A DNA stretch of 16,481 nt from Myxococcota bacterium (GTDB lineage Bacteria > Myxococcota > JACRCW01): assembly GCA_040752415.1 (NCBI GenBank), contig JBFMGU010000238.1, positions 1 to 16,481 on the forward strand. Reading direction: 5' to 3'. A program made the position numbers and the translations under genes. A model generated the notes under the pieces. That model saw only the letters and a program-made list of their open reading frames with translations, searched no databases and had not been told where the DNA came from. This document shows, piece by piece, positions 70 to 15,500 of this stretch; positions within the stretch are counted from its first letter, which is position 1, and each line of letters starts with the position of its first letter.

Positions 70-1671
70 TCAGTTGATGCCGCGGAAGGTCTTGCCGCGA
101 CCTTCACCGCGAACGGGATCCCCATCACGCACCACGGGAATGCCGCCGTTGACGACGTGACGCATCCCGGTGGGGAACTGGATCGGATCGGTGAAGGTGG
201 CGTTGTCGATGACGGTGCTGAAGTCGAACGCCACCAGGTTGGCGCGCTTGCCCTTCTCGACGACGCCGTGGTCCTTCAGTCGCATGGCGCGTGCGGCCTG
301 GGAGGTCATCTTACGCACGGCCTCTTCCAGCGTCGTCAGCTTCTTCTCCCGCGTCTGGCGGCCCAGGATGCGCGGATAGGTCCCGAACGCGCGCGGGTGC
401 GGCCGGCCACCCAGCAAGCCATCCGTGCACGCGTTGACCCACGGCAGCTTCCACAGCGCGTCGACGACGTCATCGCTCTGGCTGAACGACACCATGGCCA
501 CGCCCAGGCGCTCGCTGGCCAGCAGGTCCAGCGCGAAGTCCAGCGCCTCCACTCCCGCCGCGTTGGCAGCGTCCTCCAGCGTCTTGCCCACCACCTCGGG
601 ACGTCGGCCGCTGGGCACGTCGGCGAGGATGATTCCCTTGGCGCGCGACCACTTCCAGAAGTTGTCCCAGTGGCTCGGCTGCTGGCTCTGCATCTCAGAG
701 CGGATGCGCGCGCGCGTGGCCTTGTCGTTGAGGCGCTCCACCACCTTGTCGACGCCACCCTCGTGCATCCACGGCGGAAGGATGGCGCCCAACATGGTGG
801 AGCCGGCAATGTACGGGTACTGGTCCGCCGTCACCTCAATGCCACTGCGACGCGCCTCCTCCACCTTGGCAATCAGCTCCTCCACCCGACCCCAGTTCTC
901 CCGCCCGGCGATCTTGAAGTGGCTGATGTGGAGCCGCACGCCGCTGGCACGACAAATCTGGAGGCACTCCTCGACGCCATCCAGGATGTAGTCGCTCTCA
1001 CTGCGCATGTGGATCACGAACGCGCCGTCCCGCTTGGCCACCGGCTTGCACAGCTCAATGAGCTCCTCCGCGTTGCCGTATACGCAGGGCGGATAGATGA
1101 GGCCGGTGGAGATGCCGAGCGCGCCCTGCTCCAGCCCCTGCTCGACGAGGGCCACCATCTTCCGGACTTCCTCCGGCGTGGCGTGACGATTCTCCATGCC
1201 CATCACCACCGCGCGCACCGCGCCGTGCGGGATGAGGTACGTCATGTCCACGTGCGGCTTCACGCGGTCGATCTCGTCGAGATACGTGCGCACGTCGCGC
1301 CAGGCCCAGGACACCGGCGGGTCACCGTCGAGACCGGCGAGGCGACGCCGCGTATCCGCCACGTCCTCCTCCTTCACCGGCGTGACGCTGATGCCGTCCT
1401 GTCCCAGCACCTCCAGCCCCACGCCCTGGCGGACCTTGGGCGGAAGGTCCGGCTCGACGAGAATCTTGAGATCGCTGTGGCTGTGCGTATCCAGGAAGGC
1501 CGGCGCCACGACGAAACCCTTGCAGTCCAGCGTGTTGCGGCCCTTCAACGTGCCGGGCGGCGCCACCTCCGCAATGCGGTCACCGGAGATTCCCACGTCG
1601 GCGTGTCGACGCGGCGCACCGGTTCCATCCACCACCTCACCACCCGAGAGCACCCAATCCAGTTGAGACAT
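70..1671 (-). CDS. N-acyl-D-amino-acid deacylase (D-aminoacylase) family amidohydrolase
   Basis: About 533 aa. Shows the N-terminal 'GGEVVDGTGAPRRHADVGISGDRI' beta-domain, the metal motif DTHSHSD, IHMRSE, HISHFK, ADQYPY, CTDG and HPRAFGTYPR. ATG at 1671 follows an AAGGTG SD-like site; the GTG at 1674 is an alternative start. Confidence 0.9.
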   Translation of the reverse strand: MSQLDWVLSGGEVVDGTGAPRRHADVGISGDRIAEVAPPGTLKGRNTLDCKGFVVAPAFLDTHSHSDLKILVEPDLPPKVRQGVGLEVLGQDGISVTPVKEEDVADTRRRLAGLDGDPPVSWAWRDVRTYLDEIDRVKPHVDMTYLIPHGAVRAVVMGMENRHATPEEVRKMVALVEQGLEQGALGISTGLIYPPCVYGNAEELIELCKPVAKRDGAFVIHMRSESDYILDGVEECLQICRASGVRLHISHFKIAGRENWGRVEELIAKVEEARRSGIEVTADQYPYIAGSTMLGAILPPWMHEGGVDKVVERLNDKATRARIRSEMQSQQPSHWDNFWKWSRAKGIILADVPSGRRPEVVGKTLEDAANAAGVEALDFALDLLASERLGVAMVSFSQSDDVVDALWKLPWVNACTDGLLGGRPHPRAFGTYPRILGRQTREKKLTTLEEAVRKMTSQAARAMRLKDHGVVEKGKRANLVAFDFSTVIDNATFTDPIQFPTGMRHVVNGGIPVVRDGDPVRGEGRGKTFRGIN

Positions 1672-1684
1672 CACTTCACCTTCT

Positions 1685-3706
1685 TCATGCGGGAGTCGGC
1701 AGCAGGAACGGTGCGCTGACGTGGCTGACGTGGTCCTTCTCTCGCACCGCGTCGAGCATCACGCACAGCACCTGCGCGTAGTTCGTGTGCAGCCGGGCAT
1801 CGGGCGCCACGTCGTCAAGAGCGTTCTCCGGCGGGAGGACCGCGTCCTGGCCGTTGAGCCGGATGCGGAACGGTCCCTCGTGATACACGCGCGCACCGCC
1901 GCCACGCTCCTCCAGCGCGCACAACACACCGTCAATGCGCGCGTCCACGCGCCAGGTTCCGTCCGCCTTGCGCTCGACGTGGAACCCATCGCGGTACGGC
2001 GTGTCCTTCCAGCTGTGGTGCGAGCCGAAGAAGCGCGGCTTGACCACGTAGGGCCCGCCGTCCTCGGGACAGAACACATCGCAGTTGCCGCACTCGTTGC
2101 AGAAGTCGGCGAAGTTGGCGAGCTGGTGGTCCTTGCCCACGCGCACCGCTTCGTCCTTCTCGCGCACCAGCTTACCGGCCTCCACCTTGTAGACGGCCGC
2201 CGTCACCTCGCGCACCGCGGTCTCGAAGGAGAAGTTGGCGTCGTTGGGGCAGACGGGGATGCACTTGTCGCAGTTGATGCAGTCAAAGAACCGCAGCTGG
2301 GAACCCACCTTGCGCGGCGGCTTGCTGTTCTTGGCGGCGGCAAAGCGCGGGTTGGTGAGCGCGGCCTTGGCGACGTGCGGCGTGTTGAGCCGGGCCGCCT
2401 GGTCCACGTGCAGGTCTCCACCTTCCGGCGCGTTCGGGTCGATGGCACGCGCGCGCTTGAGCGCCTCTTCACGGTTGCCGAATGCGTTGAGGATCCACTC
2501 GCGCACGTTGTTGGCGCCCACGTCCGCCATGCGCTTCTCGACGATGGGGAAGTACTTCCCGAGGCGCGAGTAGCCACCAGGCCGCAGCAGGTCGGTGCAC
2601 ATGGTGATGGGCGTGAGTCCCAGCGCCACCATGTCCGCCGCGTTCTCGCGGTCCACGCCGGCGGAGAAGGAGATGGGCAGGCCCGGCGGAAGGTGCGGCC
2701 GCAGCTTGTCGAGCAACTGCAACGCCACCACGTGGAGCGGCTCCCCCGACGTGTACATCTCCTTTTCCGTCTTGGGGAAGAAGCTCTTGTGATTGTGGAC
2801 GATGAGCGTGTTGGTGAGCTTCACGCCGAAGGTGAGCCCGCGGCTCTTCGCGCGCTCCGTGAGTCGACCAATGATGTCCAGCGCCTGGTTCCACTGCAGG
2901 TCGTTGTCGAACGCGCTGTCGGGGGTGCGGAGCTCGTCGTAGCCCAGTTGACCGCGCACCACGTCGCGCACGCCGTCACGACCGAGCAGCGTGGGATTCA
3001 GCTTGACGATGAGGTTCAGCCCCAGGTCATCCATCAGGTAGTTGCAGATGCTCTCGATCTCGTTGGCGGGGCAGCCGTGGAACGTCGACAGCGTCAGCGA
3101 GTTGGCCAGCCTGGGTGACACCTGCAGACCCGACCAGCGTGCGAGTGGACCCGTGAGCGCATGCAATCTCTCGTCGATGAGCTGACGCGCGTTCATCATC
3201 TGGCGGATGAAGCCGGTGACCTTCTCGCTCTTGATGCCCTCCAGGTTGTAGCCGCAGGAGAGATCGAAGATGAGCGGGCTCTGCGCCATGGGCTCGCCCA
3301 GCTCACGCAGCACGTGGATGAGGATCCAGGCATTGATGTATTCGCTCAGCGACTGGCTGACGCGCAGCTCCTGGCTCCACTCGACGTTGAACCCGACGGT
3401 GGCGGCGTCAATGCACGGACGCGGAATCTTGAGCTCGTCGAGAATCTGGACGGTCTTGAGCTCCATGACGCGACCACCCGCCAGGTACGCCAGCACGATG
3501 TTCTGCGCGAGCTGGGAGTGCGGTCCGGCGGCGGGACCAAACGGCGTGGCGGCGGTCTGTCCGTGGAGCTTGATGGAGAGGTCACGACCCGGCAGCCCGG
3601 TGAAGAAGGAGCGACGCGGCAGGTCAAAGATGGCGTCCTTCTTCTCGCGCTCGACGAGCATGCGTGACAGCAACGTCGGGAGGGGGAGGGGGACAAGCTC
3701 GGCCAT
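1685..3706 (-). CDS. ygfK: YgfK-like oxidoreductase (DHODH/PreA-like barrel + 2x[4Fe-4S]), short form lacking the central FAD/NAD(P)H module
   Basis: 673 aa. The motifs TPFGPAAGPHSQLAQNIV, ELKTVQILD, FNVEWS, GYNLEGIK, TLSTFHGCP, VKLNPTLLG, GVKLTNT and TDLLRPGGY match YgfK as I recall it. The C-terminus has CINCDKCIPVCP and CNECGNCDVFCP ferredoxin motifs. GGAG SD upstream. Confidence 0.88.
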   Translation of the reverse strand: MAELVPLPLPTLLSRMLVEREKKDAIFDLPRRSFFTGLPGRDLSIKLHGQTAATPFGPAAGPHSQLAQNIVLAYLAGGRVMELKTVQILDELKIPRPCIDAATVGFNVEWSQELRVSQSLSEYINAWILIHVLRELGEPMAQSPLIFDLSCGYNLEGIKSEKVTGFIRQMMNARQLIDERLHALTGPLARWSGLQVSPRLANSLTLSTFHGCPANEIESICNYLMDDLGLNLIVKLNPTLLGRDGVRDVVRGQLGYDELRTPDSAFDNDLQWNQALDIIGRLTERAKSRGLTFGVKLTNTLIVHNHKSFFPKTEKEMYTSGEPLHVVALQLLDKLRPHLPPGLPISFSAGVDRENAADMVALGLTPITMCTDLLRPGGYSRLGKYFPIVEKRMADVGANNVREWILNAFGNREEALKRARAIDPNAPEGGDLHVDQAARLNTPHVAKAALTNPRFAAAKNSKPPRKVGSQLRFFDCINCDKCIPVCPNDANFSFETAVREVTAAVYKVEAGKLVREKDEAVRVGKDHQLANFADFCNECGNCDVFCPEDGGPYVVKPRFFGSHHSWKDTPYRDGFHVERKADGTWRVDARIDGVLCALEERGGGARVYHEGPFRIRLNGQDAVLPPENALDDVAPDARLHTNYAQVLCVMLDAVREKDHVSHVSAPFLLPTPA

Positions 3707-3730: not shown

Positions 3731-5014
3731 TCAGGACAACTTGTTCCACATCTTCTGCGCGGTCTCGCGACAGCGGTGCTTGAGCGCGGCCTCATCCACC
3801 AGCGTGAAGCGCCCACCGCGCATCACCACCTGCGCATCCACCACGACGTCGCGCACCGGCCACGGCGAGGGACCGAAGAACATATGACCGAACACGGTGT
3901 TCTCGGTGAGCGGCGTGGGCGGGTCGTACGCGGTGACCACGGCGTCCCCGACGTAGCCGGGCTGCAGCGCGCCGAACTTCCCGCCAAAGTGCCGCTCCGC
4001 GAGCTTGAAGTTGTTCTGAAGGAGCGCCAGCGCGTCGACGGAATCCGTGGGCCCGTACTGGCGGCGCCCGTTGTGGAACACCGCGCGCCCCTCGGTGATC
4101 ATGTCACCATCCATCCCGTCGGTGCCGAGCGTCACCATGCTCTTGAAGCGCTTGGGCTGCTGGTAGCCCACTGCGTTGTTGAGGTTGGAGCGCACGTTGT
4201 GGATGACGGGCGTGTCGGTGCGGGCCAGTTCCCGGATCTCCGCCTCGTCGACGTGGACCGCGTGCGCCACCAGCGAGAGCGGCCCCAGCGCGCCGGCCTT
4301 GGAGAGCCGGGTCACGGCAGGCATGTTGTACTTCGTGGCGCTGTGCACCTCGTCGGAGAGCGCTTCCGCCACGTGCACGTGGATGCCGGTGCTGGTGGCC
4401 TTCATGGCGTCGACGGCGGCGGCCAGCGTCTCCGGTCCCACGGTGAACGGCGCGTGCAGGCCCACCAGGCCGCGCAGCATGCGGTCACCCTTGATGCGCT
4501 CGATGAAGCGCTTGCACTCGGCAATGCCGCGCTGCCCGTCGGTGTCGCCGTGGCGGTCGGTGGCGCCGTAGCAGAGGACGCCCCTCAGGCCCACCTGGCG
4601 CAGCGCATCCGCGATGATGTCGAGGCTGCCGTCGATGAAACGCGGGGACTCGTGGTGGTCGAACAGCGTGGTGGTGCCGGCGCGCAGGGCCTCCATGGAC
4701 GCGGCAAACACGCTCATGCGGAGGCTCTCCTCGTCGAGCGCGCAGTCCATCTTCCACCACACCTGCTCCAGGATCTCCACGAAGGAGCGCGTGGGTCCCT
4801 TGGGCAGCGGCATGCCGCGCGCCAACCCGCTGTAGAGGTGCGTGTGCGCGCAGACCATGCCCGGCCAGATCACGCAGCCGGTGCAGTCCACGCGCTCGTC
4901 GTCGTCGTTGGGGGCGCGATCGACCACGTGACCGTCTTCCAGCACCACGTCGCGCATGGCCACGTGGACAGGATTGAGGTCCACCACCGTTCCGCCGCAA
5001 AGAGCCACGCCCAT
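3731..5014 (-). CDS. ssnA: SsnA-like metal-dependent amidohydrolase (chlorohydrolase/aminohydrolase family)
   Basis: 427 aa with PGMVCAHTHLYSGLARGM, GTTTLFDHH, GLHAPFT, HVHVAE, AHAVH and LGTDG motifs. It is adjacent to the ygfK-like gene, as ssnA is in known clusters. Confidence 0.85.
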   Translation of the reverse strand: MGVALCGGTVVDLNPVHVAMRDVVLEDGHVVDRAPNDDDERVDCTGCVIWPGMVCAHTHLYSGLARGMPLPKGPTRSFVEILEQVWWKMDCALDEESLRMSVFAASMEALRAGTTTLFDHHESPRFIDGSLDIIADALRQVGLRGVLCYGATDRHGDTDGQRGIAECKRFIERIKGDRMLRGLVGLHAPFTVGPETLAAAVDAMKATSTGIHVHVAEALSDEVHSATKYNMPAVTRLSKAGALGPLSLVAHAVHVDEAEIRELARTDTPVIHNVRSNLNNAVGYQQPKRFKSMVTLGTDGMDGDMITEGRAVFHNGRRQYGPTDSVDALALLQNNFKLAERHFGGKFGALQPGYVGDAVVTAYDPPTPLTENTVFGHMFFGPSPWPVRDVVVDAQVVMRGGRFTLVDEAALKHRCRETAQKMWNKLS

Positions 5015-5017
5015 TGC

Positions 5018-6265
5018 TCACCCCACCCTTTCCACGACGTCACGCACCGCATCCAGCCGGGGCGCCACCTTGTGCGCCGACGGAGCGGCCCGCAGCGCGC
5101 CACGTGAGTCCTTGAGCCCGTGCCCGGTGACGTAGTGCACCACGCTCTCGTCCTTACCGACGATCCCGCGCTGCTTCGCCACGTGGATACCGGCCAGCGC
5201 CGCCACCGCCGTGGGCTCGGCAAAGACGCCGGTGTTGCGCGCCAATCGTGGCATCCACTCGTCAATGAGCCCGTCGGGGACGGTGACCACGGCACCACCG
5301 CTCTCGCGAATGGCCCGCAGCGCCTTCACCGCGTTGCGCGGCGTCCCGACGCAGATGCTGTCCGCAATGGTCTTGGCGTCCTCGGGGACGAACGTCTCGG
5401 TGCCCTGGACCCACGCCTTGTGCAGCGGTGAGGAGCCCTCCGCTTGCACGGCGAGGATGCGGGGCGTGCGGGAGAGGACGCCCATGGCCTTCATCTCCTT
5501 GAGGCCCTTCCAGATGCCCGCGGTGGTGCACCCGTCGCCGAGCGGCACGGCCACCCAGTCCGCGGGCTCGCTGTTGCCCAGCTGCTCACCCAGCTCCAGG
5601 CCGCCCGTCTTCTTCCCCTCGACGAGGAACGGGTTCACCGCGCAGTTCCGGTTGAACCAGCCGAAGGCGCCCACGGCCTGCTGACACAGGTCATAGGCCT
5701 GGTCATAGGACCCTTCCACGAGCAGCACGTTGGCGCCGTAGATGAGCAGCTGCGCCAGCTTGGCCTCCGGCGCTGTGTGCGGGACGAAGATGAACGCCTT
5801 CAGCCCGAAGTGCGCCGACCACCCGGCAAGGCTGCTGGCCGCATTTCCCGTCGACGCGCACGTGATGACCTTGGCGCCCTGTTGCGCGGCGCGCCACACG
5901 CCCAGCGAGCTTGCGCGGTCCTTGAAGCTGGCGGTGGGCTGGCGTCCGTCGTCCTTCACGCGCAGCTGGCGGATGCCCAGGTCACGCGCGAGGGCGGGGA
6001 AGTCGTAGAGCGGGGTCCAGCCAATGTGCAGCTGCGGCGCCGTCCACGACGGGTCCACCGGCAAGAGCGGCCGGTAGCGCCACACGTTGAAGCTGGTGTC
6101 GGACGTCAGCGCGGCGGGAGTGTACGTGCGGAAGATGCGCTCGTAGTCGTAGATGACGTCGAGGATGCCCTTGTCGGGGCCGCACGCGGGACAGGTGTAG
6201 TCCACGCTGCCGTACGCATGGGTCTTCCTGCACTGGACGCATTCAAGGTGACGGATGTGCTGCAC
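5018..6265 (-). CDS. Threonine synthase-family (fold-type II) PLP-dependent enzyme with N-terminal zinc ribbon
   Basis: Shows a CVQC...CPAC ribbon, the PLP-lysine motif PTASFKDR, ASTGN, EGKKT, EPT and VTGHGLKD. The true start is probably the GTG at 6265, 5 nt after a perfect AGGAGG SD (6271-6276), rather than 6391. The stop is 3 nt before the ssnA ATG. Confidence 0.87.
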   Translation of the reverse strand: MQHIRHLECVQCRKTHAYGSVDYTCPACGPDKGILDVIYDYERIFRTYTPAALTSDTSFNVWRYRPLLPVDPSWTAPQLHIGWTPLYDFPALARDLGIRQLRVKDDGRQPTASFKDRASSLGVWRAAQQGAKVITCASTGNAASSLAGWSAHFGLKAFIFVPHTAPEAKLAQLLIYGANVLLVEGSYDQAYDLCQQAVGAFGWFNRNCAVNPFLVEGKKTGGLELGEQLGNSEPADWVAVPLGDGCTTAGIWKGLKEMKAMGVLSRTPRILAVQAEGSSPLHKAWVQGTETFVPEDAKTIADSICVGTPRNAVKALRAIRESGGAVVTVPDGLIDEWMPRLARNTGVFAEPTAVAALAGIHVAKQRGIVGKDESVVHYVTGHGLKDSRGALRAAPSAHKVAPRLDAVRDVVERVG

Positions 6266-6419: not shown

Positions 6420-6656
6420 ATGAAGAACCTGACCATCACGGTGCCCGAGGAAGTTGCCGCGTGGGCCCGGGTCTGGGCGGCCAAGCACAACACCAGCGTG
6501 TCCAAACTGGTGGGTGAGATGCTTCGGGAGCGCATGCAGCAGGAGGATGCGTACGAGGCGGCCATGAGGTCGTTCCTGGCGCGCAAGCCCACGGTGCTGA
6601 GTGGCGCACCGTATCCCAAGCGCGAGGAGCTGTATGACCGCCCGCGTCTTCGTTGA
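6420..6656 (+). CDS. Ribbon-helix-helix (CopG-like) antitoxin, VapB-type
   Basis: 78 aa. 'MKNLTITVPEEVAAWARVWAAKHNTSVSKLVGEML' fits the RHH pattern, and the C-terminal 'REELYDR' is typical of PIN-associated antitoxins. It overlaps the downstream PIN gene. Confidence 0.85.
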   Translation: MKNLTITVPEEVAAWARVWAAKHNTSVSKLVGEMLRERMQQEDAYEAAMRSFLARKPTVLSGAPYPKREELYDRPRLR

Positions 6657-7077
6657 CACCAACGTGCTGGCGTATGCGCAGGACCTCCGGGATGCCGTCA
6701 AGCAGCAGCGCGCCCACGAGTGGGTGACGTCGCTGTGGCGGCAACGCAACGGGCGTGTCAGCGCGCAGGTGCTCAACGAGTTGTACGTGACGCTCACGCA
6801 GCGGTTCCGACCAGGGATGAGGAAGGAAGAGGCCCGCGACTTCGTGCGCGAGCTGATGACATGGAGTCCCGTGCCGGTCGACGCCGTGCTCGTCGAGAGG
6901 GCGTGGTCGCTGCAGGACCGGTTCTCGCTGTCATTCTGGGACGCGCTGATTGTCGCGGCGGCGCATGCGTCCGGCTGCACGCACCTGCTCAGCGAGGACC
7001 TGCAGGATGGCCAGGACATGGAGGGCGTGGTCGTCGTCAACCCGTTTGCGCACGCACCGGCAGAGCTGGAACGCTGA
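6634..7077 (+). CDS. vapC: PIN-domain toxin (VapC family ribonuclease)
   Basis: 147 aa with VFVDTNVL, SAQVLNE, SFWDALIVAAA and LLSEDLQDG acidic PIN motifs. ATG 6634 follows a GAGGAG SD (6624-6629) and the gene overlaps the antitoxin by 23 nt. Confidence 0.9.
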   Translation: MTARVFVDTNVLAYAQDLRDAVKQQRAHEWVTSLWRQRNGRVSAQVLNELYVTLTQRFRPGMRKEEARDFVRELMTWSPVPVDAVLVERAWSLQDRFSLSFWDALIVAAAHASGCTHLLSEDLQDGQDMEGVVVVNPFAHAPAELER

Positions 7078-7107: not shown

Positions 7108-9711
7108 TCAGCCCTTCACAATGCCCGCGGCGGCCGGGGAGTCGCGCATGGGCAGCTTGTAGCGACGCTTCCCCTCGAACTTGGCCAACGCACCCGCCAC
7201 CGCGCCCGCCGTGGGCACCAGGCCAATCTCACCCACGCCCTTGGCGCCAAACGGACCCTCCGGCTCATGGTCCTCGACGATGATCACGTCCACCTTGGGC
7301 ATGTGCTTGGCGCGCAACACGCCGATGTCGCGGATGCGCGTGGTGACGGGGAAGCCGTCCTCGTCGGTGGCCAGCTCCTCGGAGAGCGCGTAGCCCAGGC
7401 CCATGTGCACGGACCCTTCAATCTGGCCCTGGCACAGCGCGGGATTGATGGCCCGACCCACGTCATGCGCGGCAATCACGCGCTCCACCTTGCCCTTGGC
7501 GTCGAGGATGACAACCTGCGTGGCAAATCCGAACGCGGTGTGCGTCTTGACCTTGTCAACCTTGGCGCCGAGTGGCGTGGTGTCATTGCAGAGGAAGTCA
7601 CCGGCGTAGACCTTGCCGGAGAGGTCCTTCAGGGTGGCGCCCCCGTCGAGGTCCGCCTTGAGCTGCTTGGCGGCCATGATCACCGCGTTGCCGCCGAACA
7701 GCGTGGCGCGGGAGCCCGTGGTCTGCCCGGAGCCCAGCGGATAGATGGTGTCCACCTTGGCACGGAACACGCTCGCGGGAAGGCCCGTCACCTCGCACGC
7801 GCACTGGATGAGGATGGTGAGCAGGCCCTGACCCATCTCGGTGTAGCCGTTGTACAGGCTGACGGTGGCATCCTTCTCGACGACGAGCCGGCACCGCCCC
7901 CACTCCGGCACACCGTTGCCGATGCCGCTGTTCTTGATGCCGCAGCCAATGCCCACCGCTTTGCCTTCGGCCTTGGCCTTCTCGTAGTGCGGCTTCACGG
8001 CTTCCAGCGTCTTCTTGAGGCCCACGCTCTTCTCGAGCACCTGGCCCGTGCAGAACACGCTTCCCACCTGCAGCGCGTTGCGCCAGCGGATTTCCCACGC
8101 ATCCAACCCCAGCTTCTCGGCCAGGAGGTCCATGCAGCCTTCCATGGCGAACGCCGCCTGGTTGGCCCCGAACCCGCGCATGGCGCCGCAGGGGAGGTTG
8201 TTGGTGTACGCGGCGATGGCCTCCACGTCGACGTTGGGCACGTCATACGCACCACACGCGTGACCCGCCGCGCGCTCCAGCACCTTGCCACCGACGGAAG
8301 CGTACGCGCCGCTGTCGCCGAGCATGCGGGCCCAGACGGCGGTGAGCTTGCCGTTCTCGTCGGCGCCCACGCGGTAGTGCAGGCGGATGGGGTGCCGCTT
8401 GGGGTGCATGCGGATGGAGTCATCACGCGTGAGGGTGACGCGCACGGGCTTGCCGGTCATCCTGGCCAGCAGGCACGCGTGGGCCTGGACGCTCATGTCC
8501 TCCTTGCCGCCGAACGCGCCGCCGTTGGGCACCAGCACCACGCGGATCTTGTCCTGCTCCACGCCCAGGAAGCTGGCGCACTGGCGCTGGTCGTCGAAGA
8601 TGCCCTGGCCTTGCGAGTAGAGCGTGATGTCGCCGGTGGCCTCGGGAACGGCGAGCGCGGACTCCGGCTCCAGGAACATGTGCTCAATGCGCTGCGTCTG
8701 CCACGTGCCTTCCACGACGTACTTGCTGTCCTTCAGCGCGTCCTCCGCGTTGCCGCGGGTGATGACGCTCTTGCTGAGCACGTTGTTGGGCTTGGGCGAG
8801 ATCTTGGGCGCGCCGGGCTTGATGGCCTCCTCGGGGTCGGTGACGGGAACCTTGACCTCGTACTCCACCTCGACGAGCGCCGCGGCATCCCGCGCCTGAC
8901 GGGGCGTGTCCGCCGCCACCACGGCCAGCACGTCCCCCACGTAGTGCGTCTCCTCGCCCTCGGCGATGAAGCCGGGCCAGTCGTCGTAGAGGATGCCGTA
9001 GCAGCGCTTACCGGGGACGTCCTTGTACGTGGCCACCGCGCGCACGCCAGGGGCCGCCAGGGCCTTGGTGACGTCGATCTTGATGACCTGCGCGCGCGCG
9101 TGGTCGGAGAAGCGGACGGCGCCGTGCAGCATGCCTTCCACCTTCATGTCGGCCACGTAGGGGTTCTCGCCCAGCGCGCGCGCCTTGCCGTCCACGCGGT
9201 CCAGGCTGGTTCCCACGCGACCACTCTCGTCGCGCGGAGGCAGCGCCTCACCACGCTTGACGGCGGCCGCCAGCTGGATGGCCTCGATGATCTTCACGTA
9301 CCCGGTGCAGCGACACAGGTGCACGTCGAGCTTCTTGGCAATCTCCGCGTCGGTGGGATTGGGGTTCTTCTCCAGGATGCTGTACGCGCGCATCACGATG
9401 CCGGGGATGCAGAACCCGCACTGCAGGCCCGCCTTGGCAACGAAGCAGTCCGCGAGCAGCCTCCGGTCCGCCTCGGGGAGTCCCTCCAGCGTGGTGACCT
9501 TGGCGCCCTGCTGCTTGGAGCACGGGACCGCGCACGTGGTCACTGCCCACCCGTCGACGAGCGCGGTGCAGCAACCGCATTGCCCCTGCGGCGCGCATCC
9601 GTCCTTGACGCTGGTGACTCCGCACTCTTCCCGGATGGCCTCCAGGAGCGTGCTGCGGTCATCCACCTGCAGGGACTTCTCCTGGCCATTCAGCGTGAAC
9701 TTGAACTCCAT
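7108..9711 (-). CDS. xdh: Xanthine dehydrogenase-family molybdenum hydroxylase, fused [2Fe-2S] + Mo-cofactor subunit (resembles the selenium-dependent XDH type)
   Basis: 867 aa. N-terminal GCAPQGQCGCC and QCGFC...LCRCTGY 2Fe-2S motifs. Mo-domain motifs QRIEHMFLEPE, GGAFGGKE, VLER, GAMRGFG, TEMGQG, TGSR and AKGVGE (catalytic Glu). GGAGG SD at 9719-9723. Confidence 0.9.
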   Translation of the reverse strand: MEFKFTLNGQEKSLQVDDRSTLLEAIREECGVTSVKDGCAPQGQCGCCTALVDGWAVTTCAVPCSKQQGAKVTTLEGLPEADRRLLADCFVAKAGLQCGFCIPGIVMRAYSILEKNPNPTDAEIAKKLDVHLCRCTGYVKIIEAIQLAAAVKRGEALPPRDESGRVGTSLDRVDGKARALGENPYVADMKVEGMLHGAVRFSDHARAQVIKIDVTKALAAPGVRAVATYKDVPGKRCYGILYDDWPGFIAEGEETHYVGDVLAVVAADTPRQARDAAALVEVEYEVKVPVTDPEEAIKPGAPKISPKPNNVLSKSVITRGNAEDALKDSKYVVEGTWQTQRIEHMFLEPESALAVPEATGDITLYSQGQGIFDDQRQCASFLGVEQDKIRVVLVPNGGAFGGKEDMSVQAHACLLARMTGKPVRVTLTRDDSIRMHPKRHPIRLHYRVGADENGKLTAVWARMLGDSGAYASVGGKVLERAAGHACGAYDVPNVDVEAIAAYTNNLPCGAMRGFGANQAAFAMEGCMDLLAEKLGLDAWEIRWRNALQVGSVFCTGQVLEKSVGLKKTLEAVKPHYEKAKAEGKAVGIGCGIKNSGIGNGVPEWGRCRLVVEKDATVSLYNGYTEMGQGLLTILIQCACEVTGLPASVFRAKVDTIYPLGSGQTTGSRATLFGGNAVIMAAKQLKADLDGGATLKDLSGKVYAGDFLCNDTTPLGAKVDKVKTHTAFGFATQVVILDAKGKVERVIAAHDVGRAINPALCQGQIEGSVHMGLGYALSEELATDEDGFPVTTRIRDIGVLRAKHMPKVDVIIVEDHEPEGPFGAKGVGEIGLVPTAGAVAGALAKFEGKRRYKLPMRDSPAAAGIVKG

Positions 9712-9823
9712 GCGCGTTCCTCCCGGGCGTCGGAAAACCAGCGGAGGCTACGGACAGGAGCAGCACGGGTCAATCCGCTTTCCTGCTCGCGGAGGGGCCG
9801 GTGCGTGTGGGATGGAACGGGCC

Positions 9824-10255
9824 ATGCGTCCCGGTTTCGTGTTGCTGATGCTTGCGTCGTGGGTTGGCTGCTCGGGGGATGCGTCTCCAAGCACCACCGA
9901 GGTCCAGGAAATCCGCGGCGTGTGCGCACCCGTCGTCACGCGCAGTGATGAGCGCTTCGAGATCGAGGTGAGCGGCGGCTGCGACCCGGACCGTCAGAAG
10001 TACTCCTGCGGCGTGCAGCGGTCAGGCGGCATTGTGGAGGTGAAGCTGCTGGGCCCGTCTCCGTCAGGGAGCTGCGTCACGGTCACCAAGCCCTGCTCGG
10101 TCCCGCCGCTGCCGGAGGGGACGTATCGCTTCGAGTTCCTGCGTGGGGAGTCGTTCAACCAGGAGGTGGGCGCCGCGCCGCAGCACCCGGTGTTCCAGTG
10201 TCCCAAGCCGGACGCAGGCACTCCTTCCGACGGTGGCGCCGACCCCCGCGGCTGA
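9824..10255 (+). CDS. Hypothetical Cys-rich lipoprotein
   Basis: MRPGFVLLMLASWVG|C resembles a signal peptide II with a lipobox. It has six further Cys and a C-terminal PDAG...DGG low-complexity tail. Alternative ATG at 9812. Transcribed divergently from xdh. Confidence 0.65.
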   Translation: MRPGFVLLMLASWVGCSGDASPSTTEVQEIRGVCAPVVTRSDERFEIEVSGGCDPDRQKYSCGVQRSGGIVEVKLLGPSPSGSCVTVTKPCSVPPLPEGTYRFEFLRGESFNQEVGAAPQHPVFQCPKPDAGTPSDGGADPRG

Positions 10256-10945
10256 TCACAACGTGCCCGCTGCCTTGCGCAGCACCCCCGCGGGGTCGTC
10301 GCGAATGGGGTCGCCGTGGGCGCCCAGGAGCAGCTTGAGCTGAGGCGTCTCCGCCAGCTCGAGGAGGAACTGCTTCAACACGGCCTTCTTGGCCACCTGC
10401 CGGAACCGCACAATGCGCGGCAGGCCGGCACCACCGCCGGGCACGCTGAGCAGTTTCATGAGCAGGCCCTTGGCGTGGACGTTCCCGATGACGTCGGTGA
10501 AGACCAGTGCGCGGCCTCCCGCGGCGTCGAGGTCCAGCATGATCTCACCGTGCTTGAGGCCGGGCACCACGCGGTGGCGGATGCCCAGCGGGGTGAGCAG
10601 CTGATCCGGTCCCCCGTCGACGGAAACCTTGCCGGCGAGCCGCTGCGCCGCGTCTGGCAGGGCCACCACCTTGAGGTCGGGGTAGCGCGCCTTGAAGAAC
10701 GGGGCGTCCATGATGTGGAACGCGTGCGGCACCACCATCACTTCCGGCTTGCCCAGGGCTTCCAGCTTGCGCATGCCCTCGTCGTGCATGGCCACCACGC
10801 TGTAGAGCAGCAGTCCGCCGCTGGGCAGCTTCACGATGGTCATGCTGCGAGGCAGTGGGAAGGGAAGGGAGCCAGCCACCTGCCAGATTCCAGGCGCAAT
10901 CTCGACGGGGGGCTGGTGGGGATAGATGGTGTGGGCGCTCGTCAC
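10256..10945 (-). CDS. Hypothetical protein, metallo-beta-lactamase-like fold (DUF4336-like)
   Basis: 229 aa with 'EIAPGIWQV...RSMTIVKLPSGGLLLYS', 'LEALGKPEVMVVPHAFH', 'LVFTD' and 'LLGAHG' patterns typical of this group. GTG start. Confidence 0.7.
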   Translation of the reverse strand: MTSAHTIYPHQPPVEIAPGIWQVAGSLPFPLPRSMTIVKLPSGGLLLYSVVAMHDEGMRKLEALGKPEVMVVPHAFHIMDAPFFKARYPDLKVVALPDAAQRLAGKVSVDGGPDQLLTPLGIRHRVVPGLKHGEIMLDLDAAGGRALVFTDVIGNVHAKGLLMKLLSVPGGGAGLPRIVRFRQVAKKAVLKQFLLELAETPQLKLLLGAHGDPIRDDPAGVLRKAAGTL

Positions 10946-11127
10946 GGGCCAACAAGTACTGTGGGTGGCGAGGCGCTGTCACGGTGCCGCGAGGGGGCGC
11001 GACGAAATCCCGGGACCAGGTGCTCCCGCGCCGGATCCGCGGTCGTGACCTCGGCATGCCACGGTCAGTCCTGCGTCGCGACGACGCGGCCGGGTGGTGA
11101 GCAGGACGTACCCTTTCCCCTTGCCTG

Positions 11128-11206
11128 CCAATCTCATTGGCGGGAGCCAAGAGCGTCGTCCCAATGGAGCCGCACCCAGTCTCATTGGTGGGAGCCAGGT
11201 GCGTCG
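11128..11206. repeat. Two imperfect 31-bp direct repeats (48-bp period), each with a hairpin core
   Basis: CCAATCTCATTGGCGGGAGCCAAGAGCGTCG (11128-11158) versus CCAGTCTCATTGGTGGGAGCCAGGTGCGTCG (11176-11206), 27/31 identical. Confidence 0.8.
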
Positions 11207-11387
11207 CTGCAGGAGGGCCCCCAGGGAGCCGGACCCGGTCGCCAAGCGGGTCGGCGGTGAAGCCACGAGCGCGTGCACGACGGTGTCGGCCCAAGCGCGA
11301 GCAACGTCCTGGGCAATGGACCCGGCAGCCTGGCGACGTTAAGGGGTGCGGTTGGGCGTTGTTCGTCTCCATCGTGCATCGAGCGCA

Positions 11388-14300
11388 ATGACATCACCTT
11401 TGCCTCCCGCCACGTTTCAACGCACCTGGGCCACGCCCCTGGGCAGGTTCCTCCGTGCGCACCATCGGACCGCCTCAGGGATGCGTGGGGCGGCCTACGC
11501 CCGCCTTGGCCACGTGCAGTCGTTCCGCGCCCAGGGCCAGAACGTGGTCGTCGCCACCGTCGCGGGCAGCCAGCCCCATCCCTACCAGGTCAAGCTGGAG
11601 GTGTTCCGGGAGGGTCTGCTCACCAACTGCAGCTGTCCCGTCGGCTTCGACTGCAAACACGCGGTCGCCGCCGGGCTGGTTCTCGCCACGCAGCACGGGC
11701 TGTCGACGGCGACAGACGTCCGCGTTGCACCCTCACCGCGGCCCGTGAGGCGCTCTCCTGTCGTCGTCCGCGCGCCTGCGGCCGCTCGGCGTGAAACACC
11801 TCGCGCACTTCCACCGGCTCCAGCGGCCACGGACCCGGCCCCTGCACGTGACGCCCAGGACGTCATCCTCGGCTGGCTGGCGCGCCCCGCTTCCGGCGTG
11901 ACGACGCATGACCTGGACCTCCGCGTCGAGTGGCACAGCGTGGTCTCGTCTCACGGTGGAATGGCGCAACTGCGCGCAGAGGTGGTCCTGACCCCACCGG
12001 GCGGACGCAGCGGAGCCCAGCACCCGGCGGTGGTGGGGCACATCCGGAACGAGATCACACTGGGCCGGCTCCAGCCTGCACGTGCGCGCGAGGGCCACTT
12101 CCTCCAGTGGCTGGGCACCACCGGCGCCTGGCGGGTTTCCCACGAGCACGGTGACCCGCGCCATTACGTCGCCGTCGCAGATGCCGGAGAGTGGCTGGCG
12201 CGCTGGTCCGGGAGCGGACTGCTGTGGTGGCGCGGCGGCGACGAGGTGGTGGCCGCCCCGGAGGTTGCGCGCTTCGTCGTCCGGACGGAGGACCGGGAGC
12301 CGCAGTGGATGCTGGAGCTGCCGCGGGGAGGGCAGGATGCGCTGCTGTTGCCCCTGTCCGACGTCGATCTGCTGGTCAGTGACGACTCCCCGCCCGACTT
12401 CCCACGCATCCATCTCCGTCGTGGCGCCGCCCTCCACCGGGTCGATGCCGGCGGACTGACGCTGCCGCTCCTCGAGGCGATTCGCCGCGCGCCTCTGCTC
12501 CCGCTGGACCGCGTGCGGCAGTTGCCCCAGGCGCAGCACGTCCTGGCGCCGTTCCTGGACCGGGCCGGTGCGCTGCCGGTGCCGCGCGAGGTGGACGTCC
12601 TCCCCAGCGCCGCCTTCAAGCTCAGCCCGATGGGGGAGCTGGAGATCACCGCCTGGGCCGAAGCCGCCGACGGAACGCGGTTCAACTATGCCTTCAACGC
12701 GCACTGGACCGTGTCCCTGCCCGCGTCCCTCGACACGACGTTGGAGCCCATGCCCGCCGAAACGCCCGCCGCTCCGCCCGCGCCCGACGCCGCCACGGCG
12801 CGCGCGCTGTTTGTCACGCCACGACGGGAGGACGTGGCAGCGCTGGAGAGCTGGCTGCAGGCACTGACGGTGGATGTGCTGCGCGCCGCGCGGGTTGCGG
12901 ACGCGGTCTTGCGCGGGTGGACGGAGAAGAGCGCGCGGCCGGCGCTCCTCCGGGTCTGGGAGACCCGACCGGGACACGTGCGCTACCTGGGCAACCGCCC
13001 ATTCCGCGACGCGGTCACACCGCGCCCCCCGCCGCGCTTCCAGGTTCGCGTTGAGCGCAGCGGCATCGAGTGGCTGAGTGTCTCGGTGGGGTTGCAGGAG
13101 GAGCTGGAGAGATTGGACCTCCAGGAGCTGCTGCGCGTGCTGCGGACCGCGCAGGACCAGGAGCTGGTCATCCTGCGCAGCGGGGAGATGTACCGGCGCG
13201 CCGAGCTGGAGCCGTTCAAGGCGCAACTGGAGGCCCTGGCCGACCTTGGCCTGGAGCCCCGTCGTGACGTCGAGGTCCGGCTCCATGCCGCGCAGCTCGC
13301 GGGAGTGCGCGCCGAGACGCTGTCCACGCTGAGCGAATTCTCGTCGGAGCTGGGCGCGCTGGCGGCGGCCATCCGCAAGCACGCGGCGAGCTTCAAGGGC
13401 ATCCCCAAGGCGGGCGTTCCCGTCGCCACCGCGCGCCACCTGCGTCCCTACCAGCGGCAAGGCGTGGACTTCGTGGCGTGGTCGACCAGCATCTTCGGCG
13501 GCGCCCTGCTGGCTGACGAGATGGGGCTGGGCAAGACGTTGCAGGTGCTGGCCGCCCTGACGGCGCTGCGCGCAGGACGCAAGCGCAACCTCCCCACGCT
13601 GGTGATCTGCCCGGCGAGCGTGGTGCGCAACTGGGAGCGCGAGGCGCAGCGTTTTGCGCCCGGTCTGCGCGTCGGCCTCCTGGAGCGCGGCCCCGGGCGA
13701 CAACACGTGCTCTCCCGTCTGGCGCGCCTGGACGTGGTGGTGACCAACTTCGCCCTGGCCCGCATGGAGATTGAAGCGCTCATCGCGCAGCGCTGGCTCA
13801 TGGTCGTTGTCGACGAGGCGCAGGCCATCAAGAACCCTCAGTCCGGCATTGCGCACGCCGTCAAGCGCCTGCAGGCCCGCCACCGCGTGGCGCTCACCGG
13901 GACGCCCATTGAGAACCGTTTGCAGGACCTGGAGTCCATCATGGACTTCGCGGTGCCGGGCCACCTGGGCTCGCTGGACGCGCTCCAGCCCGGGGCCGAC
14001 GACGAGACCCTGGTGCGGGGCCGTCGGATCCTGCGCGCTCGCCTCCGGCCGGTGCTGTTGCGTCGTCTGAAGCAGGAGGTGGCGCCGGAGCTGCCTCCGC
14101 GCATCGAGGAGCGACTGGACTGCGAGATGACACCTGCCCAGCGCAGGCTCTACGCCGCCGAGCTCAAGCGTGCGCGGATGGTGTTGGAGGACGTGCGCGA
14201 CGACCGGGTCGTTGGGCAGGACCGTGTGCTGATGCTGACGGTGCTCACGCGCCTGCGGCAGCTCTGCTGCGACCCTGCGGTGCTGGGCATCACCGGCGTC

Positions 14301-14846
14301 GGCTCGGGGAAGGTGGAGGAGTTCCTGGAGCTGATGACGGGCTTGTTGGAGGGGGGCCACAAGGTGCTGGTGTTCTCTCAGTTCGTGCGCGTGCTCGAGC
14401 GCCTGCGTCCGCTCCTGAGGGACCGCCGTGTGACGCAGTGGATGCTCACGGGCAAGACCCAAGGGCGGGATGCGCTGGTCCGCGAGTTCGAGGCGCACGA
14501 GGGGCCCGGGGCGTTCCTCATCTCACTGAAGGCGGGCGGCAGCGGGCTCAACCTGGTCTCCGCGTCCCAGGTGATCATCTTCGACCCGTGGTGGAACCCG
14601 GCGGTGGAGGCTCAAGCCATCGATCGCACGCACCGCATTGGGCAGCGCAAGACGGTCACGGCGTTCCGGCTGGTCACGCGCGACACGGTGGAGGAGCGCA
14701 TCATGGAGCTGCAGGAGCGCAAGCGCGCACTGGTCCGCGGCGTGCTCGAAGAAGAAGCCTTCAACCGGACGCTGACCCGTGAGGACTTCGAGTTCCTCCT
14801 GGCACCCACCGCGCGCCGGGAAGCAGGCGATCACCCCCCGACGTGA
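11388..14846 (+). CDS. SWIM zinc-finger + SNF2-family (SF2) DEAD/DEAH-like helicase/ATPase
   Basis: SWIM motif CSCPVGFDCKH. Helicase motifs LRPYQ, LADEMGLGKT, VVDEAQAIKN, LTGTPIEN, RLRQLC, LVFSQF, SLKAGGSGLNL, DPWWNP and QAIDRTHRIGQ. The start is uncertain; ATG 11388 was chosen. Confidence 0.92.
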   Translation: MTSPLPPATFQRTWATPLGRFLRAHHRTASGMRGAAYARLGHVQSFRAQGQNVVVATVAGSQPHPYQVKLEVFREGLLTNCSCPVGFDCKHAVAAGLVLATQHGLSTATDVRVAPSPRPVRRSPVVVRAPAAARRETPRALPPAPAATDPAPARDAQDVILGWLARPASGVTTHDLDLRVEWHSVVSSHGGMAQLRAEVVLTPPGGRSGAQHPAVVGHIRNEITLGRLQPARAREGHFLQWLGTTGAWRVSHEHGDPRHYVAVADAGEWLARWSGSGLLWWRGGDEVVAAPEVARFVVRTEDREPQWMLELPRGGQDALLLPLSDVDLLVSDDSPPDFPRIHLRRGAALHRVDAGGLTLPLLEAIRRAPLLPLDRVRQLPQAQHVLAPFLDRAGALPVPREVDVLPSAAFKLSPMGELEITAWAEAADGTRFNYAFNAHWTVSLPASLDTTLEPMPAETPAAPPAPDAATARALFVTPRREDVAALESWLQALTVDVLRAARVADAVLRGWTEKSARPALLRVWETRPGHVRYLGNRPFRDAVTPRPPPRFQVRVERSGIEWLSVSVGLQEELERLDLQELLRVLRTAQDQELVILRSGEMYRRAELEPFKAQLEALADLGLEPRRDVEVRLHAAQLAGVRAETLSTLSEFSSELGALAAAIRKHAASFKGIPKAGVPVATARHLRPYQRQGVDFVAWSTSIFGGALLADEMGLGKTLQVLAALTALRAGRKRNLPTLVICPASVVRNWEREAQRFAPGLRVGLLERGPGRQHVLSRLARLDVVVTNFALARMEIEALIAQRWLMVVVDEAQAIKNPQSGIAHAVKRLQARHRVALTGTPIENRLQDLESIMDFAVPGHLGSLDALQPGADDETLVRGRRILRARLRPVLLRRLKQEVAPELPPRIEERLDCEMTPAQRRLYAAELKRARMVLEDVRDDRVVGQDRVLMLTVLTRLRQLCCDPAVLGITGVGSGKVEEFLELMTGLLEGGHKVLVFSQFVRVLERLRPLLRDRRVTQWMLTGKTQGRDALVREFEAHEGPGAFLISLKAGGSGLNLVSASQVIIFDPWWNPAVEAQAIDRTHRIGQRKTVTAFRLVTRDTVEERIMELQERKRALVRGVLEEEAFNRTLTREDFEFLLAPTARREAGDHPPT

Positions 14847-14915: not shown

Positions 14916-15500
14916 ATGCGAGCGGTGGTTCTGGATGTGCCGGAAGACTGGCTCAAGGAGCGAGCGCGCCTTGGGCTGGACCGTCGGGATGAGATGTGGA
15001 ACGGGGTTCTTCACATGGTTCCACCGCCGTCGTTTGAGCATCAGGACCTGGCTGGACAGCTCTTCGGGTTCCTGCTCGTTCGGCTGGCGTCTCGTGGCAT
15101 CCGCGTCCTGTACGAGACCGGTGTGTTTCGCCCGGGCGGGGGTGGGAAGGACTACCGTATCCCTGACATGGTGTTTTTCCGCGCGTCGGACAAGCACCTC
15201 GTCACGGACCGCGGGATCGAGGGTGCGCCACTGGCCGTGCTCGAAGTGCTTTCACCCGACGATGAGAGCTACGAGAAGCTGGACTTCTGGGCAGCGCTGG
15301 GCGTTGCGGAGGTCATCATGATCTCGCCGAAGGACCGCGCCGTGGAACTCTACCGGCTCGCGGGGACCGGCTACGTGGCGACGTCAGCTGACGCGTCGTG
15401 GACGCTCCACGCCGCATCCATCGACGTGCGCTGGTCGCGCCTGCCGCGGATTCCAGCGTGCCTGCGTGTTGAGTGCGGTGGCGAGGCCATGGAAATCTAG
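14916..15500 (+). CDS. Uma2 family (DUF820) PD-(D/E)xK endonuclease-like protein
   Basis: 194 aa with RDEMWNGVLHMVPPPSFEHQ, RIPDM, GAPLAVLEVLSP and EKLDFWAALGVAEV motifs. Confidence 0.88.
   Translation: MRAVVLDVPEDWLKERARLGLDRRDEMWNGVLHMVPPPSFEHQDLAGQLFGFLLVRLASRGIRVLYETGVFRPGGGGKDYRIPDMVFFRASDKHLVTDRGIEGAPLAVLEVLSPDDESYEKLDFWAALGVAEVIMISPKDRAVELYRLAGTGYVATSADASWTLHAASIDVRWSRLPRIPACLRVECGGEAMEI

Follow-up and report, generated by a model that had tools for sequence, protein, structure and literature searches.

The final enzyme of the reductive, 2,8-dioxopurine route of urate breakdown in Escherichia coli and Clostridium sporogenes is the diaminopropionate ammonia-lyase YgeX/DpaL, a fold-type II pyridoxal phosphate (PLP) enzyme. 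The gene cluster of this pathway (Li et al., bioRxiv 10.1101/2025.05.19.654654; Liu et al., bioRxiv 10.1101/2025.04.24.650524) has XdhD-type, YgfK-type, SsnA and UacY-type proteins in common with the window analyzed here, an entire contig of 16,481 bases (68% G+C) from an 11 Mb Myxococcota genome (520 contigs, 96.8% complete). The window version differs from the published cluster in that its YgfK is without the NAD(P)H half, YgfM, YgeW, YqeA, YgeY and YgeX are missing, a hydantoinase and a CN-hydrolase are located on another contig, and a gene for a ThrC-like fold-type II PLP enzyme of 415 amino acids is added (5018..6265, minus strand), which combines an N-terminal four-cysteine zinc ribbon with a PALP domain. 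This ThrC-like protein is a candidate for the terminal lyase; it is probably not a threonine synthase, and would belong to a ThrC-derived clade that performs the terminal diaminopropionate lyase step of the reductive urate pathway. The pathway itself is known; the novelty would lie in a ThrC-fold clade with a putative new specificity.

With the short bacterial threonine synthases (ThrC, EC 4.2.3.1; structures 2zsj from Aquifex, 1uim/1v7c from Thermus, 6cgq/6nmx from Bacillus, and 2d1f from Mycobacterium), the window protein shares the fold, 34–38% sequence identity, the SFKDR lysine, the S-T-G-N loop and the C-terminal TGxGLKD motif; it differs in its pocket residues, in its separate tree clade, and in the location of its gene, which is found in a purine operon and not with thrB. 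YgeX/DpaL occupies the same place in the cluster, the same products are proposed for both enzymes, and the two are mutually exclusive among SsnA-positive Clostridia-class genomes; yet the window protein comes from another branch of the superfamily and is usually accompanied by a second PLP enzyme, whereas DpaL needs none. Cysteate synthase, which evolved from ThrC and uses a phospho-amino acid, is a close ThrC relative (TIGR03844; structure 9k3c, also labelled CapA2), and 9k3c is a structural neighbor of the window model (TMq 0.79).

Pocket residues and family relationships

In alignments, the ThrC-like protein retains the overall ThrC architecture together with the PLP lysine K115 (5921..5923, minus strand, as for all motifs below), which pairs with the SFKDR lysine of the solved enzymes. 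In Thermus thermophilus ThrC, the phosphate ligands of O-phosphohomoserine are, we presume, the Thr of STGNT, the Asn-Ser before VNP, the Arg after NPx, and the Asn of GNAGN. A residue-level alignment with four solved ThrCs (2zsj, 1uim, 6cgq, 2d1f) and with the canonical ThrC of the same genome finds each of these sites changed: STGNT is replaced by STGNA (5840..5854), with A142 for the Thr; the NRNCAVNPFLVEGKKT loop (5606..5653) has Cys-Ala (C208/A209) for the Asn-Ser before VNP, NPF-L for NPx-R (L214 for the Arg), EGKK for EGQK (K218 for the Gln), and a new arginine, R206, eight residues upstream of the lost one; and GNAGN is replaced by GDGCT in the PLGDGCT loop (5525..5545), with D244 for the Asn. 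One alignment differs by pairing N207 with the ThrC Asn and treating C208 as an insertion.

These substitutions recur in two protein sets, one consisting of the window protein and its best database homologs (121 proteins), the other of the window protein, 79 of the 80 ThrC-like loci that were obtained by scanning one genome per species, and three Clostridia-class loci (83 proteins from many phyla). STGNA, with its alanine, was present in all 121 proteins of the first set, and the arginine site was Leu in 118 and Met in 2 of the 120 that fit the second pattern. K115, A142, K218, K219 and D244 were invariant in all 83 proteins of the second set; site 214 was occupied by Leu (41), Met (36), Thr (4), Pro (1) or Cys (1) and never by Arg, and R206 was found in 82 of the 83. 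As judged from these alignments, the pocket substitutions are no chance effect but fixed across relatives, and the clade is without the ThrC phosphate-pocket residues, having an invariant D244 and a hydrophobic residue at the former phosphate Arg. The preliminary description of this DNA had proposed a remodelled substrate-phosphate pocket in which the phosphate-binding arginine is lost, and both points hold up, as do the motif coordinates that it gives and the bounds of the open reading frame; of its individual substitutions, Thr to Ala, Arg to Leu and Asn to Asp stand, whereas the one given as Ser to Cys should more precisely read Asn-Ser to Cys-Ala.

The gene starts with GTG at 6265, five bases after an AGGAGG motif, and stops at 5018; the resulting length of 415 amino acids and the N-terminus agree with the homologs. 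Its product matches PF00291 with 246.9 bits and exceeds the cut-off of the threonine synthase model TIGR00260 (191.2 vs. 167.1 bits), although not that of the zinc-ribbon type NF006050 (293.6 vs. 303 bits), and its homologs carry the name “threonine synthase” in public sources; the expected misannotation as thrC is evident from both. With 52.5 bits against a cut-off of 276 for the DpaL model NF006058, it is no DpaL homolog in the narrow sense. Cysteate synthase was rejected as an identification at 77 bits vs. a cut-off of 324.9 (TIGR03844), and so were threonine dehydratase and cysteine synthase, the models of which score far under their cut-offs. An AlphaFold2 model (pLDDT 90.8) has its best fold matches among the short bacterial ThrC structures (TM 0.83–0.85, by target); fold-type II racemases are also among its structural neighbors. 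The zinc-ribbon cysteines, CVQC ... CPAC at residues 9–28 (6182..6241), were located by translation and alignment; C25 and C28 are invariant among the homologs and C9 and C12 are conserved in at least 90%. The ribbon does not distinguish the subfamily, since the canonical ThrC of this genome has one as well.

This canonical ThrC is encoded on contig C508, where the stop of a homoserine-kinase-like gene (thrB) overlaps the start of a 424-amino-acid thrC whose motifs (STGNT, NSINPFRVEGQKT and AGNLGN) contain all canonical residues; whether the genome has another thrC, a question raised by the preliminary description, is answered by this thrB-thrC operon. The two proteins are 34% identical, and in the same genome-wide search with TIGR00260 the C508 protein scored 284 bits vs. 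192 for the window gene. Since a separate, higher-scoring thrC is paired with thrB on C508 and the window gene adjoins SsnA, the latter is, by its context, not the housekeeping threonine synthase. A phylogenetic tree (FastTree, local support only) was calculated for 121 rows, consisting of the window protein, the genome's own ThrC and 119 database representatives restricted to 380–480 amino acids, a limit by which 31 of 150 were dropped. Four canonical rows fall outside a branch with 99% support, within which 96 of the 121 rows form a clade with 100% support; 88 rows of this clade have both Ala142 and Asp244. The clade also includes database proteins (P0135–P0258) of which many have Thr at site 214 and GDGNI for GDGCT, a type with few members among the 80 loci.

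It appears extremely improbable that the window gene, located beside purine genes by mere coincidence, encodes a functional threonine synthase or a different phospho-amino-acid enzyme, for example a cysteate synthase. The ThrC fold and the TIGR00260 score speak for it, and R206 might rescue phosphate binding; against this, none of the presumed phosphate ligands is retained and their substitutes are fixed, the genome has a canonical thrB-thrC operon at another place, the cysteate synthase model falls far short of its cut-off, and the presence of the gene follows SsnA and excludes DpaL, as detailed below.

Distribution against DpaL and gene neighborhoods

DpaL, which the preliminary description had found missing from the window, is absent from the 96.8%-complete genome as well, where the best match reaches 67 bits against the cut-off of 276; YgeY is likewise absent from the genome above its cut-off. 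A comparison was made in the Clostridia-class, where 25 of 300 scored genomes, sampled evenly, were SsnA-positive. Among these 25, DpaL was present in 13 and absent in 12, and the ThrC-like gene was found in all 12 DpaL-lacking genomes and in none of the 13 DpaL-bearing ones. The subfamily profile A1 scored 387–590 bits in the 12 carriers, and the next best match anywhere in the 25 genomes did not exceed 265 bits; the A1 threshold in this set was chosen after the gap was seen, and two of the 12 genes are cut by contig ends. Both genes tend to be close to SsnA, within approximately 10 kb in 10 of 12 cases for the ThrC-like gene and in 11 of 13 for DpaL. A hydantoinase-like gene occurs in all 25 genomes and thus in both cluster types, which rules out that the ThrC-like gene and its frequent partner PALP2 (discussed below) replace the hydantoinase too, and indicates that DpaL is specifically swapped.

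In the phylum of the window itself, 41 genomes were compared; the ThrC-like gene was present in 13 of 17 SsnA-positive and in none of 24 SsnA-negative genomes, and DpaL was found in none of the 41. Fisher tests give p-values of ca. 1e-7 to 2e-7 for the two tables (2e-7 for the Clostridia-class), which are overstated since related genomes are not independent. Across the 50 genomes with a ThrC-like gene, DpaL above cut-off was found in five (G011, G013, G042, G049 and G050, with the ThrC-like loci L047, L052, L055, L045 and L058, respectively); the two genes lie 17 kb apart on one contig in G013, and the DpaL gene of G049 is interrupted by TAA. Four of these five genomes are Desulfobacterota-type metagenome-assembled genomes. 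In these 50 carrier genomes and the two genome samples, most urate-cluster carriers outside the E. coli type are without ygeX and have the ThrC-like gene instead. The complementary distribution of ThrC-like gene and DpaL in the Clostridia-class, together with the tracking of SsnA in the window's own phylum, makes it most likely that the ThrC-like gene is the DpaL substitute in the urate operon, and lends strong comparative support to the replacement that had been proposed from the window alone.

The gene neighborhoods are consistent with this assignment. The 80 ThrC-like loci span Acidobacteriota, Myxococcota, Chloroflexota, Desulfobacterota, Bacillota, Planctomycetota, Thermotogota, Synergistota, and others. 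For a neighbor census, all open reading frames of at least 110 amino acids were clustered and the clusters named by NCBIfam and Pfam; clusters 2, 8 and 26 were set aside as opposite-strand shadow reading frames, and clusters 9, 10 and 12, which had no NCBIfam match, were left out of the markers. SsnA, xanthine dehydrogenase and an OTC/YgeW-like carbamoyltransferase were each found at 32 of the 80 loci, YgeY and carbamate kinase at 26 each, YgfK-like proteins at 12, and a PydA-like UacX at 8. At least one urate-pathway marker besides PALP2 was present at 62 loci and none at 12, within the stretch fetched. By their family matches, the recurrent neighbors are enzymes of the reductive urate pathway as given in the two 2025 preprints.

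Locus L113 illustrates the substitution within an otherwise canonical E. coli-type set: adenine deaminase, HyuA, YgeW (763 bits), a regulator, selenium-type xanthine dehydrogenase, the ThrC-like gene and PALP2 are followed by YgeY (704 bits), a full-length YgfK (1579 bits), a deaminase, SsnA (700 bits) and XdhA. HyuA, YgeW, the xanthine dehydrogenase, YgeY, YgfK and SsnA each score far above cut-off; the cluster has no YgeX, and the ThrC-like gene stands at the ygeX place.

The PALP2 partner and the predicted reaction

Directly downstream of the ThrC-like gene at 43 of the 80 loci is PALP2, a CysK-like PLP enzyme of approximately 490 amino acids that has kept its PLP lysine and S-T-G-N loop. 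It is present in 45 of the 50 carrier genomes, the other five being without a match at E ≤ 1e-40. Of the 12 Clostridia-class carriers, 11 have it no more than approximately 4 kb away from the ThrC-like gene on one contig; in the twelfth, the contig ends within the ThrC-like gene. Where the ThrC-like gene is followed by SsnA, PALP2 is unlinked (the window genome and G006) or was not found at E ≤ 1e-40 (G005, G012, G020 and G033). The PALP2 of the window genome is encoded on contig C23 (6077–7627, minus strand; locus L112) and is 44% identical to the protein of locus L101. Flanked by genes for a KaiC-like ATPase and an aspartyl-tRNA synthetase, this gene is isolated and remote from any purine gene. 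A distinct pocket in the loci without PALP2 (L033, L049, L075 and L100) was considered and rejected; no private signature appeared among those listed, and L033 equals the PALP2-bearing L028–L031. The ThrC-like enzyme is the constant member of the pair.

Its substrate and reaction can be proposed, with fair confidence, from the company it keeps. A xanthine-dehydrogenase homolog would produce 2,8-dioxopurine, the pyrimidine ring of which would be reduced and opened by the short YgfK and SsnA, and the hydantoin ring would then be opened by a hydantoinase encoded on contig C506. Two ureido-cleaving hydrolases, the UacY-like protein of the window and a CN-hydrolase on C506, would yield 2,3-diaminopropionate, and the ThrC-like protein would catalyze a PLP-dependent alpha,beta-elimination, as YgeX/DpaL does in E. 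coli, to aminoacrylate and on to pyruvate and ammonia; D244 might serve as partner or acid for the leaving beta-amine on PLP. Diaminopropionate is expected to reach the PLP step because two ureido-cleaving enzymes accompany the ThrC-like gene: a carbamoyltransferase and YgeY at each of the loci L113, L114 and L031, an Amidohydro_3 hydrolase and a CN-hydrolase at L033, and the UacY-like gene and the C506 CN-hydrolase in the window genome. On C506 (locus L119, 7653–9946, minus strand), the CN-hydrolase gene is paired with one for a D-hydantoinase (596 bits, above cut-off), and housekeeping genes surround the two. A CN-hydrolase encoded next to the urate cluster of the Myxococcales locus L033 shares 66% identity with the C506 protein, and by analogy to this locus we infer a role of both C506 genes in the urate pathway. 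The ThrC-like enzyme may act alone, as the gene order of the window suggests, or jointly with PALP2.

The presence of two ureido-cleaving enzymes also bears on the idea that the ThrC-like enzyme acts one step earlier, on 3-ureido-alanine (albizziin), from which it would eliminate urea or carbamate; the ureido group would be recognized by D244 and R206, and one ureido hydrolase would be bypassed. Albizziin is a pathway intermediate (Li et al., bioRxiv 10.1101/2025.05.19.654654), its leaving group would resemble the phosphate ester of the ThrC substrate in size more than an amino group does, the rebuilt loops contain an invariant Asp and a nearly invariant Arg, and the window genome is without YgeY above cut-off. 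This idea nevertheless appears quite improbable, as clusters with the ThrC-like gene usually keep two ureido-cleaving enzymes, and the gene swaps for DpaL, and not for YgeY or YgeW, in the Clostridia-class set and at L113.

The frequency of PALP2, in 45 of 50 genomes, directly downstream at more than half of the loci and in 11 of 12 Clostridia-class carriers, and its intact PLP lysine and S-T-G-N loop raise the alternative that PALP2 is the diaminopropionate lyase and the ThrC-like protein an auxiliary, for example one racemizing the D-product of a D-hydantoinase route, or that both form one heteromer. The fold-type II racemases near the ThrC-like model would fit an auxiliary racemase; to our knowledge, however, no racemase with a ThrC fold has been described. 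An R configuration is proposed for the pathway intermediates, with their stereochemistry described as open (Liu et al.; PMC12990295). The alternative is unlikely given that the ThrC-like enzyme is the constant member, that 5 of 50 genomes gave no PALP2 match at E ≤ 1e-40, that PALP2 is unlinked both in the window genome and in another one with the ThrC-like-then-SsnA order, and that two SsnA-positive, DpaL-bearing Clostridia-class genomes carry an unlinked PALP2-like gene. A broader version, in which the ThrC-like enzyme and PALP2 constitute a new two-enzyme PLP system and not a copy of DpaL, is possible and can be put forward tentatively; it could take the form of a racemase or epimerase combined with an L-specific lyase to handle D-configured diaminopropionate, of a heteromeric lyase, or of a urea/carbamate elimination from ureido-alanine or serine-forming hydration on the ThrC fold.

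Several observations weigh against the preferred assignment of the ThrC-like protein as terminal diaminopropionate lyase. The nearly universal R206 could still put a positive charge in the pocket. PALP2 is widespread and linked and has an intact PLP lysine; it could be the lyase and the ThrC-like protein something else. The co-occurrence of DpaL and the ThrC-like gene in 5 of 50 genomes speaks against a strict equivalence of the two, and for 10 of the 12 other ThrC-like genes within the phylum of the window, SsnA is located on a different contig. In the window itself, the SsnA and YgfK matches remain below their family cut-offs, so that the purine handled could differ from urate, and the operon runs off the contig, which stops 69 bases past the last gene.

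The window operon, annotation and significance

On the minus strand of the window, the gene order is selenium-type xanthine dehydrogenase, ThrC-like gene, SsnA-like gene, short YgfK-like gene, and UacY-like Amidohydro_3 gene, with the ThrC-like gene as the first of a tight four-gene operon (intergenic gaps of 3, 24 and 10 bases). By its predicted functions, this operon downstream of the xanthine dehydrogenase corresponds to the 2,8-dioxopurine (reductive urate) route described in 2025. The xanthine dehydrogenase (7108..9711) is of the selenium-dependent XdhD / 2,8-dioxopurine dehydrogenase type (TIGR03311, 962.5 bits, cut-off 830.45), with 2Fe-2S and Mo-binding domains in a single chain according to Pfam. 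The SsnA-like amidohydrolase (3731..5014), which starts 3 bases past the ThrC-like stop, matches NF005540 with 404.6 bits (cut-off 444) and TIGR03314 with 378.4 bits (cut-off 455.5), at E-values of 1e-113 to 1e-121. Adjacent to it, the YgfK-like reductase (1685..3706; 673 amino acids) combines a half resembling FMN-binding dihydroorotate dehydrogenases with a 4Fe-4S dicluster, visible as Fer4 domains at residues 475–549; its TIGR03315 match (442 bits, cut-off 835) is confined to positions 5–398 of 1012, and the C-terminal NAD(P)H/FAD half is lacking by comparison with the full-length YgfK of 1018 amino acids in locus L113. The last gene before the contig end encodes the UacY-like Amidohydro_3 hydrolase (70..1674; PF07969, 86.4 bits), of the Pfam family that it shares with the UacY ureido-hydrolase of C. 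difficile and by which UacY is marked in the published survey (Li et al., bioRxiv 10.1101/2025.05.19.654654).

The remainder of the window has other contents. Between the xanthine dehydrogenase and the ThrC-like operon, on the opposite strand, a 78-amino-acid DUF6364 reading frame (6420–6656, plus strand) overlaps a PIN-domain gene for 147 amino acids (6634–7077, plus strand), a pair with the look of a VapBC-type toxin-antitoxin system. The interval of ~1.6 kb at 9712–11345 has long reading frames on both strands, with no Pfam or NCBIfam match except a sub-threshold DUF4336. It is followed by a 1166-amino-acid SNF2-family helicase with a SWIM zinc finger (11346–14846, plus strand) and a Uma2-family putative endonuclease (14916–15500, plus strand), neither of which has a relation to the purine operon.

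The terms “threonine synthase” and “ThrC” do not occur in either of the urate-pathway preprints (Li et al., bioRxiv 10.1101/2025.05.19.654654; Liu et al., bioRxiv 10.1101/2025.04.24.650524); in the former, YgeX in gene neighborhoods was marked by PF00291 only, which also fits the ThrC-like gene. No paper joining dioxopurine with threonine synthase was found in a search that left subscription journals and preprint supplements outside its scope. For threonine synthase in connection with ssnA, ygeY, diaminopropionate ammonia-lyase or isoxanthine, only one E. coli proteomics paper and one Bilophila paper name the enzyme among the matches listed. In the latter, the annotated “threonine synthase” E5Y294 of Bilophila wadsworthia lacked cysteate sulfo-lyase activity; a 52-kDa protein with PF00291 was not assayed in that study (PMC11193023).

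Anaerobic bacterial urate breakdown lowers the urate load of the host, and its genes now serve as markers and as building blocks of engineered probiotics. If ygeX is required in a survey, urate degraders would be undercounted, and surveys that identify YgeX by PF00291 would count ThrC-like genes and be blind to the different enzyme; automatic annotation spreads the wrong name, and pathway reconstructions would credit these organisms with a second threonine synthase. For enzymology, the clade would be a clear example from nature of how a PLP enzyme that eliminates phosphate can be rebuilt for a putative amino or ureido leaving group. If the two-enzyme PLP system were true, it would represent a PLP reaction so far undescribed for proteins of the ThrC fold, and the currently accepted end of the anaerobic urate pathway would have to be revised in more than 10 phyla.

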